Origin: Escherichia coli O127:H6 str. E2348/69
GTDB taxonomy: Bacteria > Pseudomonadota > Gammaproteobacteria > Enterobacterales > Enterobacteriaceae
DNA: 64,000 bases
Reading direction: 5' to 3' (one strand)
Assembly: GCF_000026545.1 (NCBI RefSeq)
Contig: NC_011601.1
The notes under the pieces were generated by a model. It had not been told where the DNA came from. It saw only the letters and a program-made list of their open reading frames with translations, and made no database searches. The translations under genes and the position numbers were made by a program. This document shows positions 24,210-41,019 of the stretch, piece by piece (within the stretch, counting starts at the first letter, position 1; each line of letters starts with the position of its first letter).

Positions 24210-25148
24210 TCAGTTAAAAGGTTGTAAGTCGACGCGCGCCATCATTGCGGCCAACTGCGGACGATCGGTAATACCCACATTGCTTTGACTTACCGCCAGG
24301 GCTGCAACAGCTGTCGCCAGACGCAGTGTGTGTTCACTGGATTCACGCATCAGCAAGCCATAAATCAGGCCACCAACCATAGAATCCCCTGCGCCAACGG
24401 TGCTTACGACATCGACTGACGGTGGTTTGGCGATCCATTCGCCGGAGGCATTAACCCAAAGCGCGCCTTCGGCACCCAGTGAAATAACAACATGCGCGAT
24501 GCCTTGTTCACGCAGCGCATGCGCAGCTTCAATCACATCTTTCATTTCAGGCAGTTTACGGCCTGCCCAGATTTCCAGCTCGCGGCGGTTAGGTTTCACC
24601 AGCCACGGTGCCGCTTTCAAACCTGCTACTAACGCTTCACGGCTACTATCAAAGATAATGCAAGGACACTGACTACGCAGGCGAGTCATCCAGTCGGTGA
24701 ACGCTTCCGGGCTGACGCCTGACGGTAAGCTTCCGCTGACACAGACCATATCGAACTGACCGAGCCAGCTCAGAGAATCAGTCACAAAGCGTTCCCAGTC
24801 GGCGGGGGTGACTTCAAAACCCGAGAAGTTGAAGTCGGTCACTTCGCCGTCTTTTTCCGTCAGCTTAACGTTAATTCGGGTGCGCCCCTGTACAACCTGG
24901 AAACGGTTGGCAATGCCCAGCTCGCTGAACAGTTGCTGAAAACCATCCTGATTGTCTTTACCCATGAAGCCGCCAACGGTGACATCAATTCCCAGGTCTT
25001 TTAATACTTTGGCCACGTTGATGCCTTTACCCGCCGCATGCAGACCGGTGGTTTTCACCAGGTTCACTTCGCCGCGTTCAATTTCCGGGCAGAAACCAAC
25101 AAGGTCATAAGCCGGATTAAGGGTGATAGTAGCAACACGTCTGCTCAT
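24210..25148 (-). CDS. fruK: 1-phosphofructokinase FruK
   Basis: 312-aa PfkB-family ORF matching FruK. Confidence 0.95.
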   Translation of the reverse strand: MSRRVATITLNPAYDLVGFCPEIERGEVNLVKTTGLHAAGKGINVAKVLKDLGIDVTVGGFMGKDNQDGFQQLFSELGIANRFQVVQGRTRINVKLTEKDGEVTDFNFSGFEVTPADWERFVTDSLSWLGQFDMVCVSGSLPSGVSPEAFTDWMTRLRSQCPCIIFDSSREALVAGLKAAPWLVKPNRRELEIWAGRKLPEMKDVIEAAHALREQGIAHVVISLGAEGALWVNASGEWIAKPPSVDVVSTVGAGDSMVGGLIYGLLMRESSEHTLRLATAVAALAVSQSNVGITDRPQLAAMMARVDLQPFN

Positions 25149-26278
25149 TATGCGCCCTCCCCAAGACCAGCAGCGATAGCGTCGCCAATGGCTTTCAGCG
25201 CCTGTTCAGCATCTGCACCCTGGGCGGTAAAGCGTAGGCGATGACCTTTCTTAACGCCAAGTGCCACAACTTTCATCAGACTACGTCCGTTTGCCGGTTT
25301 GCCGGTGCCATCAAGGTTTGTCACGGTAATATCACTGTTAAATTGTTTAATGGTATTGACCAGCATGGTACCTGGACGAGCATGCAGGCCGTGTTCATTG
25401 CGCACCACAAACTCCGCGCTTAACACGTCGTCGGTCGGCGCATCATCGCTGGTCAGCAGCGCCAGCAACGTTGCCGCATCCGCTTTCAGCAAGCGGTCAG
25501 CTTTATTATCGAGCAACAAATCAGCGAGACGCTTAAGAACCGCGATGGGCTGATCGTCATTCATCGCCACACTCACCAGCATGGCTGCCGTTTCGCCGTC
25601 CACATCAAAAGCATTTGCCGCACGGCTTACCGCAATCGCGCTACGCAGATTGCCTTCGGCGCTATCGCTCAGCCAGATACCCTGCCCGAGGTTCAGCGGT
25701 TGTTCATTGATGGCTTTGGTGACGAAAGTGGCGTCAACTGCCCCCGCTTCTTTCAGACGCGCAGCGTTCAGCGCCTGAAGAGTCAGCAGATCGCTGGCGA
25801 CGATATCCAGCGTCAGCATTTCGTTGTCGAGCTTCAGCTGCTCACTCTGCTTTTCGCCCATCAGCAATGCGCGAAGTTCTTCTGCTGTTGTTGCTGACTT
25901 CAGTTGTTCAGCAACGGAATCATCGCTCAGTACGTGGGTCAGCTGGCGTAGCAGGCCCAGATGTTCATCCGAGCTGGCAGCAATACCGATCGCCACGTAC
26001 GCTACCTGGCCGTCACCCCAGGTGACGCCTTCCGGGAACTGAAATACCTGAACGCCGGTTTTCAGCACCTGATCGCGGGTGTCGGTAGTGCCGTGTGGAA
26101 TAGCAATACCATTGCCGAGGAACGTTGAGGTTTGCTGTTCGCGCGCCAGCATGCCATTGACGTAGCCTTCAGCTACATTACCGGCCTGCACCAGCGCCGC
26201 AGCGACCTGGCGAATCGCCTCTTCTTTGTCTCCGGCCTTTTCGCCCGGATGGATGTCCTGTACGGATAACTGGAACAT
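25148..26278 (-). CDS. fruB: Fructose PTS EIIA-FPr fusion FruB
   Basis: 376-aa ORF with N-terminal EIIA-like and C-terminal HPr-like ([11 protein letters not shown]) domains; matches FruB. Confidence 0.95.
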
Positions 26279-26292
26279 AGTTCTCCTCTCTT

Positions 26293-26313
26293 GCTGAATT
26301 GAAACGATTCAGC
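26293..26313. promoter_or_regulatory. Cra (FruR) operator in fruB control region
   Basis: gctgaattgaaacgattcagc contains a TGAATCGTTTCA-type Cra half-palindrome just upstream of the fruB ATG. Confidence 0.55.
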
Positions 26314-26362
26314 TTCTATGAGAAAAAAGCGCCAACCTGGCTTAGGGTTAAAGACAAGATCG

Positions 26363-26376
26363 CGCTGAAACGTTTC
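26363..26376. promoter_or_regulatory. Cra (FruR) operator
   Basis: gctgaaacgtttca matches the Cra consensus GCTGAAACGTTTCA. Confidence 0.6.
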
Positions 26377-26644
26377 AAGAAAGCATAATACTTTTGTTTC
26401 AGCACGCAAGGAAAGCCGTAAAGTTATGAGCAAAAGTTTGATGTGCTGCACAATTTTTTGTCATTTTTCCTAATTGCTGATGGGAAAATCCGTTATCAGC
26501 AATTTCATTTCAGCAGCGTCAGCAGCCAATCAGCAACAGTGAAATGGCATTTTGATTATTCGTGGCGCTTTTGATTTCGCTGTCTGTTTATTTTCTGACA
26601 AGCAGCGTAAACTCCGCGTCTTCCTCTTCCAGTGATCGACCAGC

Positions 26645-27826
26645 ATGCATAACTCCCCCGCAGTCACCAGCGCGAAATCGTTTGACCTGACCTCGATGGC
26701 GTTTTTAATCGTTGCCTTTCTCACCGGTATTGCGGGCGCTCTGCAAACCCCGACACTCAGTATTTTTCTTACTGATGAAGTACATGCCCGTCCGGCGATG
26801 GTGGGATTCTTCTTTACCGGCAGCGCAGTCATTGGGATTCTGGTGAGTCAGTTTCTCGCCGGGCGCTCTGATAAGCGCGGCGATCGCAAATCGCTGATTG
26901 TCTTTTGCTGCCTGTTAGGCGTGCTGGCCTGCACCCTTTTTGCCTGGAATCGCAACTACTTTGTTTTGCTATTCGTTGGCGTCTTTCTTAGCAGCTTTGG
27001 CTCGACCGCTAACCCGCAAATGTTTGCCCTTGCCCGTGAACATGCCGACAAAACCGGACGTGAGGCGGTGATGTTCAGCTCTTTTTTACGCGCTCAGGTT
27101 TCACTGGCATGGGTCATTGGCCCACCGCTGGCTTATGCCTTAGCGATGGGTTTCAACTTTACGGTAATGTATCTGAGCGCAGCGGTAGCGTTTATTGTTT
27201 GCGGCGTGATGGTGTGGCTGTTTTTGCCGTCGATGCAAAAAGAGCTTCCGCTGGCGACCGGCACGGTTGAAGCGCCGCGCCGTAACCGTCGCGATACGTT
27301 GCTGCTGTTTGTCATTTGTACATTGATGTGGGGCTCGAACAGCCTGTACATCATCAACATGCCGCTATTTATTATCAACGAACTGCATCTTCCCGAGAAA
27401 CTGGCCGGTGTGATGATGGGGACCGCCGCCGGGCTGGAAATCCCGACCATGTTGATTGCCGGATATTTTGCCAAACGTCTAGGTAAGCGCTTCTTAATGC
27501 GCGTTGCTGCCGTGGGTGGCGTCTGTTTTTACGCAGGAATGCTGATGGCGCATTCACCTGTCATTCTGTTGGGCTTGCAGCTGCTAAATGCTATTTTTAT
27601 TGGCATTCTGGGCGGCATCGGGATGCTCTATTTTCAGGATTTGATGCCCGGTCAGGCAGGTTCAGCCACCACGCTCTATACCAACACGTCGCGCGTGGGC
27701 TGGATCATCGCAGGATCAGTGGCGGGCATCGTCGCCGAGATCTGGAATTATCACGCTGTGTTCTGGTTTGCGATGGTGATGATTATCGCCACTCTGTTTT
27801 GCTTACTGCGAATTAAAGATGTTTAA
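26645..27826 (+). CDS. setB: Sugar efflux transporter SetB (MFS)
   Basis: 393-aa 12-TM MFS ORF matching SetB. Confidence 0.9.
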
Positions 27827-28077
27827 GGCGCGGTCAGCATTTCCAGATCGATAAGCCAGGTCATTGCCTGCTGACGCGAGTTACCGCACATTTCAGCGCT
27901 GGCTTGTAAGCCTGCACAGACTTTCGGTCGCAGTGGCGAGGTGAAAATTTTACAGCGTTGCTGTTCATCAAGCTGAATGCAGGGCGTATTGGCGGGCTTG
28001 CCATCTGGCATACCGGGAATAGGGCTGGAAATTGAAGGGGCAGTGCAACACGCCCCGCAACCCGGACGGCATTCCAT
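27823..28077 (-). CDS. yeiW: Cysteine-cluster protein YeiW (UPF0153)
   Basis: Frame 27823-28209 trimmed to [45 protein letters not shown]... (84 aa); Cys-rich; stop overlaps the setB stop convergently. Confidence 0.8.
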
Positions 28078-28231
28078 ACGTTGTTCTCTTAAGGTTAACC
28101 ACCGGATTGATGAGCGCGCACAGTACCACCTTTTTTGCACCAGCAAAAGTGCGAATACCACTTGCCCGAAAGGCCCGTCGCGAGTACTTTGTCGCGATAT
28201 TTTTGACATTTTTGACTACAGGAATTTTTCG

Positions 28232-33507: not shown

Positions 33508-35064
33508 ATGTTTATACGCGCTCCCAATTCTGGACGTAAGCTCCTGCTTACCTGCATTGTTGCAGGCGTGATGATTGCGATACTGGTGAGCTGCCTTCAG
33601 TTTTTAGTGGCCTGGCATAAGCACGAAGTCAAATACGACACACTGATTACCGACGTACAAAAGTATCTCGATACCTATTTTGCCGACCTTAAATCTACTA
33701 CTGATCGGCTCCAGCCGCTGACCTTAGATACCTGCCAGCAGGCTAACCCCGAACTGACCGCCCGCGCGGCGTTTAGCATGAATGTTCGTACGTTTGTGCT
33801 GGTAAAAGATAAAAAAACATTCTGTTCATCTGCGACCGGTGAGATGGACATTCCACTCAATGAATTGATTCCGGCGCTCGACATTAATAAAAACGTCGAT
33901 ATGGCGATCTTACCCGGCACGCCGATGGTGCCGAACAAACCCGCAATCGTCATCTGGTATCGCAACCCTTTGCTGAAAAATAGCGGCGTGTTTGCCGCTC
34001 TGAATCTCAACCTGACGCCTTCACTCTTTTATAGTTCACGGCAGGAAGATTACGATGGCCTCGCCCTCATTATTGGTAATACTGCGCTATCTACCTTTTC
34101 TTCACGTTTGATGAACGTTAATGAATTAACCGACATGCCGGTCCGTGAAACTAAAATTGCGGGCATTCCTCTGACCGTTCGGCTTTATGCAGATGACTGG
34201 ACATGGAACGATGTGTGGTACGCATTTTTACTGGGTGGCATGAGTGGAACTTTCGTTGGACTTCTCTGCTATTACCTGATGAGTGTGCGTATGCGCCCAG
34301 GCAGAGAAATCATGACCGCCATCAAGCGCGAACAATTTTACGTGGTATATCAACCGGTGGTTGATACACAAGCTTTGCGGGTAACGGGCCTGGAAGTACT
34401 GCTACGCTGGCGGCATCCAGTAGCAGGTGAAATCCCCCCGGATGCCTTCATTAACTTTGCCGAAGCGCAAAAGATGATTGTGCCACTGACTCAGCACCTG
34501 TTTGAGTTGATTGCCCGCGATGCCGCAGAATTAGAAAAAGTACTGCCGGTAGGCGTCAAATTTGGCATTAACATTGCGCCGGCCCACTTGCACAGCGAAA
34601 GCTTTAAAGCGGATATCCAGAAACTGCTCACTTCCCTGCCCGCACACCATTTCCAGATTGTGCTGGAAATTACCGAGCGCGATATGCTGAAAGAGCGAGA
34701 AGCCACACAACTCTTCGCCTGGCTGCATTCGGTCGGCGTAGAAATTGCTATTGATGACTTCGGCACCGGGCACAGCGCGCTTATCTATCTTGAGCGTTTT
34801 ACGCTCGATTATCTGAAAATTGATCGTGGATTTATCAACGCCATCGGTACGGAAACGATCACTTCACCCGTACTTGACGCGGTGCTGACGCTGGCGAAAC
34901 GTCTCAATATGCTGACAGTTGCTGAAGGGGTCGAAACGCCAGAACAGGCACGATGGCTAAGCGAACGCGGCGTTAATTTCATGCAAGGCTACTGGATTAG
35001 TCGCCCGTTACCGCTGGACGATTTTGTTCGCTGGCTGAAGAAACCGTATACGCCGCAGTGGTAA
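33508..35064 (+). CDS. rtn: EAL-domain c-di-GMP phosphodiesterase Rtn (PdeN) with CSS-type periplasmic sensor
   Basis: 518-aa ORF; N-terminal TM/periplasmic region and C-terminal EAL domain (EVLLRW, DDFGTG). Confidence 0.88.
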   Translation: MFIRAPNSGRKLLLTCIVAGVMIAILVSCLQFLVAWHKHEVKYDTLITDVQKYLDTYFADLKSTTDRLQPLTLDTCQQANPELTARAAFSMNVRTFVLVKDKKTFCSSATGEMDIPLNELIPALDINKNVDMAILPGTPMVPNKPAIVIWYRNPLLKNSGVFAALNLNLTPSLFYSSRQEDYDGLALIIGNTALSTFSSRLMNVNELTDMPVRETKIAGIPLTVRLYADDWTWNDVWYAFLLGGMSGTFVGLLCYYLMSVRMRPGREIMTAIKREQFYVVYQPVVDTQALRVTGLEVLLRWRHPVAGEIPPDAFINFAEAQKMIVPLTQHLFELIARDAAELEKVLPVGVKFGINIAPAHLHSESFKADIQKLLTSLPAHHFQIVLEITERDMLKEREATQLFAWLHSVGVEIAIDDFGTGHSALIYLERFTLDYLKIDRGFINAIGTETITSPVLDAVLTLAKRLNMLTVAEGVETPEQARWLSERGVNFMQGYWISRPLPLDDFVRWLKKPYTPQW

Positions 35065-40674: not shown

Positions 40675-41019
40675 TTAAAAAGGATTGTAGTTTGAAAAGG
40701 GTTCGGCAATTGCCACACCAAAATTTTTCAATCGGCATGTTGCAGCAAATTCGTCCTGGCGATTTACAAACAGGCACGGCTCACCTTCACACTCCAGCAC
40801 CGAACATGGAACTTCGATGTCGCTTAACGCCTGGCTTAGTTTGTACATCACCGACCATGCATTATCACCATCCGGGCTAAGCAATTTAAGCGCCACCAGG
40901 CTGTTGTCACCGCACGGTCCATTTTGCGGAATCGGTTCAACCTTCGAACCTGCGAAACCAGCAGACCAGCGATAGTTCTGCGGCAGTCGATGGACGATTG
41001 AGAGTTGTAATGAAGTCAC
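40675..41019 (-). CDS. yejG: Uncharacterized protein YejG
   Basis: 114-aa [50 protein letters not shown]...; matches YejG. Confidence 0.85.

Follow-up and report, generated by a model that had tools for sequence, protein, structure and literature searches.

An array of GCTGA sites in the fruB-setB intergenic region

The spacer between the divergent genes fruB and setB of Escherichia coli O127:H6 str. E2348/69, situated in a stretch of 64,000 nucleotides of contig NC_011601.1 that was analysed as a whole (hereafter the window), contains a genuine and apparently unannotated cis-element of the fru control region. This element is a block of repeated GCTGA pentamers next to the CRP site and most likely represents, with a probability of roughly 0.5, a helically phased array of putative binding sites that acts together with CRP. 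The copies are conserved in sequence, spacing and helical phase, are linked to fruB, and match none of the canonical Cra, CRP, terminator and Rfam models. Conservation, helical phasing and anchoring to CRP jointly support a protein-binding array that is distinct from the Cra operators; protein binding itself, joint action with CRP and the direction of the effect are inferred. In the window, the minus strand encodes fruB (25148-26278) and the plus strand encodes setB (26645-27826), with a spacer of 366 bp between them. This spacer is 100% identical to that of strain ATCC 11775 and occurs as a single copy in 5413 of 5426 complete genomes, and a 75-bp block with the repeats is unchanged in 4661 of 5411 E. 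coli genomes. The RefSeq record of MG1655, in which the block corresponds to 2263689-2263754, carries no annotation in the fruB-setB spacer.

Direct reading of the sequence bore out the perfect 10-bp inverted repeat with a 13-bp spacer that an earlier note on this DNA had described, AATTGCTGAT (26472-26481) and ATCAGCAATT (26495-26504) being exact reverse complements separated by 13 nt. Copies of the hexamer TCAGCA start at positions 26497, 26510, 26519 and 26530, and an inverted copy, TGCTGA, starts at 26476. The four hexamers that had been listed before are present and three of them (26510, 26519 and 26530) had been placed correctly, but the first one starts at 26497 and not at 26495, which is the start of ATCAGCA (a slip of 2 nt). 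The location proposed for the block, about 110-170 bp upstream of setB, agrees with the 108-173 bp measured, and the block is indeed separate from the Cra operators O1 (26298-26313) and O2 (26364-26379). Its five TCAGCA/TGCTGA copies per 66 bp make up the densest cluster of this hexamer in the 64-kb window. As the hexamer is about 4-fold over-represented across the window, this excess was allowed for, which gave a Poisson probability for a five-copy cluster of about 2e-7 per 66-bp bin and about 2e-4 over the window. The second-densest cluster of the window, consisting of three TGCTGA hexamers at 34883-34930, lies inside the coding sequence of pdeN and is probably incidental.

Perfect 10-bp inverted repeats with a spacer of at most 20 nt were found 10 times in the window, versus about once per shuffled window, so that the perfect inverted repeat alone is unremarkable and constitutes weak evidence. 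This repeat (26472-26504, not assigned to a strand) is composed of two of the sites described below, A and B, with matched flanks. It measures 9 bp in Escherichia sp. MOD1-EC7003 and 8 bp in E. albertii, and it is broken in E. whittamii and other Escherichia lineages. The perfect inverted repeat is the oppositely oriented pair A and B, the flanks of which became identical in the E. coli lineage, and is a lineage-specific elaboration of the array.

Conservation of the sites among Enterobacteriaceae

A one-genome-per-species scan yielded 80 Enterobacteriaceae fruB loci, with FruB proteins that are 80-99% identical, and an alignment of 74 spacers. Strongly conserved in this alignment were O1, O2, the -35 element of fruB, the CRP site and setB-proximal blocks. 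Inside the array block, the pentamers A, C and D alone were conserved, each base being present in 67-74 of the 74 sequences, and the sequence between them was essentially random. Site A (TTGCTGAtgg, 26474-26483, plus strand; pentamer GCTGA at 26477-26481) is the core of the 5' arm of the inverted repeat; its G, C, T, G and A were each found in 70-73 of the 74 sequences, the family consensus being ttTGCTGA[A/C]Gc. Similarly, site C (TCAGC in the context tTTCAGCa, 26510-26514, minus strand; TGCTGAAAT on the fruB strand) was retained in 71-73 sequences and site D (TCAGC in the context gTCAGCa, 26519-26523, minus strand) in 67-74 sequences. Site B (TCAGC, 26497-26501, minus strand), the core of the 3' arm, is a facultative lattice position, and site E (TCAGC, 26530-26534, minus strand), 82-83 bp from the GCACA half of the CRP site, was restricted to the Escherichia rows. 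The conservation check that had been proposed for Escherichia and Salmonella, carried out here over the Enterobacteriaceae, was thus passed by A, C and D, which are near-invariant across 74-82 fruB upstream regions, but not by B, found in about half of the sequences and genera, nor by the fourth hexamer, found in Escherichia only. As only three pentamers are conserved, the conserved object consists of one forward and two reverse motif copies and not of a perfect palindrome. The flanks of A, C and D share an extended motif, TTGCTGAMG, of which the core GCTGA is invariant.

An explanation without any function would consider the repeats as a by-product of slippage of a 9-bp unit and homogenisation of quasi-palindromes in an AT-rich spacer. 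Indeed, C and D of E. coli form a two-copy 9-bp unit (TCAGCAGCG/TCAGCAGCC, D being the second copy), and E. coli strain E89 (L082, NZ_CP121157.1) contains the TCAGCAGCG unit four times instead of twice, an 18-bp expansion aligned at 26510-26527. In addition, site E and the perfect inverted repeat are each confined to particular lineages, and chance alone would give about one perfect 10-bp repeat in 64 kb. Strain E89 is the sole genome of 5413 in the 90-95% identity band, indicating that the C-D pair behaves as a rare copy-number variant. No tandem repeat was found by TRF in the block at a score of at least 30, and the copy-number unit is limited to C-D in Escherichia. However, slippage and homogenisation fail to explain three pentamers kept in 67-74 of the 74 sequences in genera with randomised intervening sequence, as well as the phase-preserving deletions and the fixed distance to CRP described below, and a by-product is considered highly improbable.

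Spacing, helical phase and anchoring to the CRP site

The anchor of the putative lattice is the CRP site (aagTTTGAtgtgctGCACAatt, 26434-26455, centre 26444.5, not assigned to a strand), which is the only good CRP-like site of the spacer and has its best CRP-consensus score, 10.9 bits, a value at the 99.98th percentile for the window; it is conserved as TTAGA-N6-GCACA. A single CRP site in the fruB-setB spacer has been reported to activate both fruB and setB (PMC3105977). Site A is located 28-30 bp from the half-site GCACA in most genera, and 19-20 or 10 bp from it in clades with deletions. Measured from the same half-site, forward copies were found at about 10, 19-20, 28-30 and 40 bp, and reverse copies at 48-52, 61-64, 70-74 and 82-83 bp. 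The distances among the sites amount to 32-34 bp from A to C in almost all genera, 41-43 bp from A to D, 9-11 bp from C to D, and 17-21 bp from A to B (8 bp in four Enterobacter species). A periodogram of the pentamer centres relative to the CRP centre peaked at 10.5-10.75 bp, with a resultant R of 0.70 for the pooled data; when each distinct offset was counted once, R was 0.43 at 10.9 bp, versus a 99th percentile of 0.32 under a null of random placements. Furthermore, the register is kept through independent deletions, namely through an 11-bp deletion between CRP and A in Lelliottia and Yokenella, as well as through deletions of 12-13 bp in Enterobacter and Leclercia and of 20 bp in Klebsiella and Raoultella. 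The block hence displays a repeated conserved motif, spacings in multiples of about 10.5 bp and variable intervening sequence, as a helically phased array does. Maintenance of the phase relative to CRP-bound DNA is predicted by a protein assembly on one face of the helix and makes no obvious sense for an RNA element.

In this array, copies of the 9-bp motif TTGCTGA(A/C)G occupy lattice points of about 10.5 bp on the same helical face, the first of them roughly 1.5 turns away from the dyad of the region's only CRP site. Sites A (forward), C and D (both reverse) are the fixed points across the Enterobacteriaceae, and B, E and other points are filled or empty according to lineage. In the most likely mechanism, the copies would be recognised by a sequence-specific DNA-binding protein that assembles cooperatively alongside CRP. 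This putative assembly, about 100-150 bp upstream of the fruBKA promoter, would modulate transcription that depends on CRP; it could be a co-activator or, in the manner of CytR, an anti-activator. As the control region is shared, setB may be affected too.

Linkage of the array to fruB

The gene setB is divergent from fruB in 73 of the 80 loci, with a spacer of 330-372 bp. The seven other loci (L053, L056, L058, L067, L073, L075 and L079) lack a complete setB beside fruB. The divergent position is taken in Phytobacter, UBA3516 and Kosakonia sp. S29 by a gene for a short-chain dehydrogenase (SDR) or for a phosphoenolpyruvate (PEP)-mutase/isocitrate-lyase-like protein, in Enterobacter sp. Bisph1 only a C-terminal setB remnant was found, and in Siccibacter colletis setB is cleanly deleted, the 3' end of yeiW abutting the array and no divergent gene remaining. 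The loss, replacement or truncation of setB beside fruB occurred at least 3-4 times. All seven setB-deficient loci have A, C, D, the CRP site and O1/O2 intact, and the setB-proximal blocks are reduced or gone. Retention of the array with fruB where setB is gone indicates that the array is part of the fru/CRP module and not a setB-specific operator. Two readings had been put forward in the earlier note, namely an array of operators for setB and a second layer of control over fru; the interpretation is partly supported, in that the latter reading is favoured, as the array stays with fruB in these seven loci, and a setB-specific operator is disfavoured.

In E. coli, the array extends from about -100 to -155 relative to the predicted fruB start and from about -85 to -145 relative to the predicted setB start. 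Its location 108-173 bp upstream of setB, the activation of setB by CRP from the shared site (PMC3105977), and the maintenance of the divergent arrangement with a spacer of about 366 bp in 73 of 80 loci would all agree with repeats that are setB-specific operators or elements of the setB core promoter. This possibility is nevertheless very unlikely, as the array is kept where setB has been deleted, replaced or truncated, Siccibacter included. In addition, a consensus scan found no sigma-70 promoter for setB in the block and a matrix scan found no conserved -10 there, so that no sigma-70-like -10 occurs at a conserved distance from the pentamers; the sequence is variable where a -10 would be required, and the nearest conserved candidate -10 starts at 26608. 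The latter belongs to the best conserved candidate setB promoter, about 90-140 bp downstream of the array (ctgTTTATT...TAAACT, 26584-26613, plus strand, -10 at 26608-26613), a prediction of which both elements are conserved and of which the -10 was called at this column in 24 of 74 orthologs. The sole published setB start that was found is a plus-strand site of five reads, 460 nt upstream of the start codon (Kim et al. 2012, PMC3415461 supplement), which maps to about 26136-26186 on the plus strand, within the fruB coding region and antisense to it. The start-site data of the same study contained no Klebsiella entry.

Relationship to the Cra operators and the fruB promoter

Two Cra operators were retrieved with a Cra consensus matrix, namely the fruB-proximal O2 (GCTGAAACGTTTCAAG, 26364-26379, plus strand, 20.1 bits), invariant in the alignment, and the fruB-distal O1 (GCTGAATCGTTTCAAT on the fruB strand, 26298-26313, minus strand, 21.1 bits), conserved in the alignment. 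Both sequences agree with the operators quoted in PMC11157272. A matrix scan predicted a sigma-70 promoter for fruB (TTGCGT-16-TATGCT, 26382-26409, minus strand, 7.6 bits), the -35 of which is strongly conserved and the -10 of which was called at the same column in 26-35 of the 74 orthologs. The fruB start would accordingly be placed near 26375, inside O2, and a location of the Cra sites downstream of the fruB start (PMC7897506) is consistent with this predicted start.

The resemblance between the pentamers and Cra half-sites raises the question whether the array might be made up of auxiliary Cra half-operators, at which Cra dimers, possibly bridged by FruK, would bind weakly and loop to O1/O2, tightening repression of fruBKA in the way of lac O2/O3. 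A non-canonical or FruK-bridged looping mode of Cra has been raised before (PMC11157272). In the Cra half-site GCTGAAWC, the five outermost bases are exactly GCTGA; each of the five copies contains GCTGA or TCAGC, and three of these are near-invariant across genera. Moreover, many genera have GCTGAAGC at site A, GCTGAAAC or GCTGAAAT is found at site C, and the array travels with the Cra-controlled fruB promoter. The inner part of the operator does not follow, however. The best 16-mers in 26472-26537 score 0.6-0.8 bits and the spacer outside O1/O2 reaches at most 1.5 bits with the consensus matrix, versus 20-21 bits for the operators; conservation extends neither to the inner TGAAWC nor to the central CG, no second half-site occurs at operator spacing, and the 16-bp palindrome GCTGAAWC|GWTTCAGC is absent. 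At site A, about 40% of the species have GCTGAC, position 6 being A in 33 and C in 30 of the 74 sequences, and position 7 being G in 57. Also, the array copies favour a T before GCTGA, whereas A or C precedes it in the true operators. The classic footprints of Cra on fru DNA reportedly showed two operators. Cra, acting on half-sites in a non-canonical mode, is the sole candidate that can be named for the factor of the array, and its core test fails; auxiliary half-operators are rather unlikely.

Further copies of related sequence were found near fruB. A conserved extra TTGCTGAAT adjoins O1 (26291-26313), and together with the outer half of O1 it constitutes a 7-bp inverted repeat, GCTGAAT-N7-ATTCAGC; in the mRNA of fruB, this repeat would form a hairpin (-7.7 kcal/mol) located 10 nt ahead of the ribosome-binding site. 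Another copy, TGCTGAAA, is present at 26398-26405 (reverse), within the spacer of the fruB promoter. The TTGCTGAAT and TGCTGAAA copies fit the array motif and not the flank of a Cra operator. Elsewhere in the window, a Cra-like 16-mer (GCGGAATCGGTTCAAC, 40926-40941) inside yejG scored 14.7 bits, the third best value of the window; it is probably incidental.

Hairpin structures and transcription termination

An alternative that does not involve an array of protein sites is a hairpin of site A with B, C or D as the functional unit, be it an RNA stem-loop in a long setB leader or upstream transcript (an attenuator, or an insulator between the divergent promoters) or a DNA cruciform. For either strand, folding of the E. 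coli repeat as an RNA hairpin gives -13.6 kcal/mol (z = -3.2); on the plus strand, the repeat is followed by UUUCAUUU and, in Salmonella, by a U-rich run. A transcript from the weak plus-strand start within fruB would run through the region. In almost all orthologs, a downstream copy can pair with site A (mean z of -1.9), the mean best stem being 7.80 bp, compared with 7.45 ± 0.13 bp after permutation. Covariation of the A-B helix was 0.214 versus 0.175 in shuffles, none of 500 shuffles being as high, with only 59% of the cells paired, and compensatory C-G, A-U and U-A pairs occur at columns 28/42, beside the A-B core. For position A+6 versus D-1, a Fisher test gave p = 0.004, uncorrected for phylogeny.

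Nevertheless, the A-B covariation could also stem from relatedness or from template-switch correction of quasi-palindromes, and B is missing in about 40% of the sequences. The A-C and A-D extensions display no covariation beyond shuffles, and this, together with the common TTGCTGAMG flanks, fits repeated protein sites better than a stem. The tight spacing of A to C and D and the phase to CRP, maintained through deletions of 10 and 20 bp, lack a rationale in terms of RNA, and the array persists in Siccibacter without any following plus-strand gene. Further, a terminator scan of 26200-26750 gave no terminator, Term-seq tables list no 3' end at MG1655 2263600-2263899 on either strand, and an Rfam 15 scan of 26200-26750 with E values up to 10 returned chance-level eukaryotic matches only (E of at least 1.6), none of them in the block. 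All three of these negative results count against a hairpin, and the terminator scan and Term-seq data against a terminator as well. As an intrinsic terminator, the structure was rejected: 4 of the 10 pairs of the stem are G-C, the loop is 13 nt long, and the tail UUUCAUUU is not conserved. On balance, a hairpin function is regarded as decidedly unlikely.

Candidate factors and weight of the proposed array

Several other identities of the copies were considered and rejected. A CRP site identity does not apply, as nothing in the block is among the top CRP scores and the forward-to-reverse pentamer spacings are 8, 17-21 or 32-34 bp, and not 11 bp (TGTGA-N6-TCACA). By-eye comparison with remembered consensus sequences covered sigma-54, sigma-32, sigma-E and sigma-28 promoters, none of which fits the invariant GCTGA, as well as sites for IHF, Fis, LexA, DnaA, YpdB, KdgR/PlaR, MetR/LysR-type regulators and PutA and the marbox, none of which fits GCTGA either. 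The possibility that FruB itself might be the DNA-binding regulator, by means of its central 'M' region, was dropped: Pfam gives two EIIA_2 stretches, the second of which probably represents the M region, and no DNA-binding domain, and the AlphaFold model of FruB is poor (pLDDT, the predicted local distance difference test score, of 53.5), with an alpha/beta M region. Small open reading frames (ORFs) were discarded too: a 43-aa GTG ORF (26443-26574) and a 20-codon ATG ORF starting in site A (26481-26543) cross indels of 1-13 bp, and their start codons are absent in other genera.

Published signals at the fruB-setB spacer comprise peaks of FlhDC and PlaR in genomic SELEX (gSELEX) and peaks of the RpoH and RpoF holoenzymes, and they do not explain the pentamers. 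The FlhDC site as listed lies inside setB, and the PlaR box ATnTGAAACnnnGTTCAnTT resembles Cra operators. The targets in Table 1 of PMC9962212 largely coincide with the classic Cra regulon; this signal might come from Cra-box-like sequences or from Cra that was co-purified, and not from FlhDC. A synthetic-biology paper used the spacer merely as an integration site, and a uridine paper contained no link between CytR and the spacer.

A number of points weigh against a phased array of protein sites acting with CRP. The orthologs all come from the Enterobacteriaceae, with FruB proteins that are at least 80% identical, and they are not independent of one another in phylogenetic terms; a protein-database search for more distant FruB loci returned almost only Salmonella. 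The orientation of the copies is mixed and the occupancy of the lattice varies among genera, so that a single rigid complex would not suit all species. The invariant core of 5 bp is short for a typical helix-turn-helix site. Furthermore, the A-B pair covaries somewhat and site A always has a complementary partner, leaving room for a hairpin role. No second cluster was found in the rest of the 64-kb window, nor was any comparable cluster or match to the composite pattern found in 50 kb of MG1655 around sgrR-sgrS-setA and cra, and hence no regulon emerged from these regions. For the composite pattern, GCTGA-N27-29-TCAGC-N4-6-TCAGC, roughly 0.1 chance matches would be expected in a genome. Finally, a limited literature search revealed no factor assigned to the block, the reported spacer signals being of low resolution.

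Other features of the region

A further conserved block (TGAAATGGCATTTTGATTATTCGTGG, 26540-26565, not assigned to a strand) is located about two turns past site D. Its consensus is TGAAATG(G/C)CATTTTGAT(T/A)TTCGTGG, with a near-palindrome AAATGSCATTT within it and one good TGAAA half, similar to boxes of the KdgR/PlaR/Cra type; the TGAAAT part is retained in most setB-less loci. In the 5' leader of fruB (26322-26366, minus strand), between O2 and O1, a stem-loop AGCGC...GCGCU followed by U6 was found. In two sample lists of published Term-seq tables, a very strong RNA 3' end is given at MG1655 2263539(-), a position 44 nt upstream of the fruB gene. The stem-loop and this 3' end suggest that the fru operon has a short leader RNA or that its transcription is terminated prematurely.

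Downstream of setB, the longest ORF for yeiW (27823-28209, minus strand) codes for 128 aa, versus 255 nt (84 aa) annotated in K-12; it overlaps the setB stop by 4 nt, and the difference in length concerns the choice of start codon only. Among the loci analysed, a contig labelled 'Chryseobacterium sp. 18061' (L072, CACSKA010000001.1) bears a typical Enterobacteriaceae fruB-setB locus, with a FruB that is 84% identical to that of E. coli, and is nearly the same as a contig labelled 'Citrobacter sp. 18056' (L070, CACSJR010000003.1); it probably originates from a mislabelled or contaminated assembly. Similarly, locus L069 is labelled 'Proteobacteria bacterium', yet it is Kosakonia-like.

Comparison with known systems and implications for fructose uptake

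In the CytR-CRP complexes at deoP2, cdd and udp, a second regulator sits beside CRP on a fixed helical face and modulates CRP-dependent transcription. CytR is said to use short half-sites, direct or inverted, with variable spacing, next to CRP, as the fru array may do. However, the CytR half-site is said to be GTTGCATT or TGCAA, sharing only TTGC with TTGCTGA and lacking the invariant TGA, and CytR promoters have two CRP sites that flank the operator, whereas the fru region has one CRP site with the array wholly on its fruB-distal side. The malEp-malKp region is similar in being a divergent control region of a sugar-transport operon, in which several short asymmetric motif copies (MalT boxes) and CRP sites in helical register form a higher-order complex. 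It differs in that the MalT boxes have another sequence, the activator is known, and the sites reach the -35 regions; the fru sites are about 85-155 bp from the predicted starts. Likewise, the operator of MraZ, with TGGGN pentamers repeated directly every 10 bp, and the GTTGCA sites of PutA in the put divergent region have very short cores of 5-6 bp that are repeated one turn apart or scattered, and that are bound by a protein of oligomeric or ribbon-helix-helix type. Their sequences are different, and the MraZ repeats are all direct, whereas the fru array switches from forward copies near CRP to reverse copies distally; neither protein is known to act at the fru locus. As regards the auxiliary pseudo-operators of LacI-family repressors (lac O2/O3; Cra O1/O2), the array has the outer pentamer of the Cra half-site and is located in a Cra-controlled region, at a looping distance of 110-210 bp from O1/O2; in contrast to them, the array fails the 16-bp operator model (at most 1.5 versus 20-21 bits), and neither the inner half-site nor the central CG is conserved.

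The founding target of Cra, fruBKA, is also a textbook example of an operon of the phosphotransferase system (PTS) that is activated by CRP, and its control region is usually described as two Cra operators and one CRP site. A tentative proposal, held at a little under even odds, is that the GCTGA lattice serves as a docking platform for a regulator that is new to the fructose operon, either an uncharacterised Enterobacteriaceae DNA-binding protein or an unconventional higher-order complex of Cra and FruK. This regulator would work with CRP on one face of the helix and provide a third input to fruBKA, and to setB. The interest of the element lies in its occurrence in a classic, supposedly well-understood operon and in its being small, precisely defined and cheaply testable. 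Should nothing bind to it, the block would still illustrate cleanly how indels can evolve in a bacterial promoter with the phase preserved. The array is as conserved across the Enterobacteriaceae as the known sites and is locked in helical phase to CRP. If it is truly a third element, it would represent an input to fructose uptake that is missing from the current model, and it may also affect the neighbouring sugar-efflux gene.

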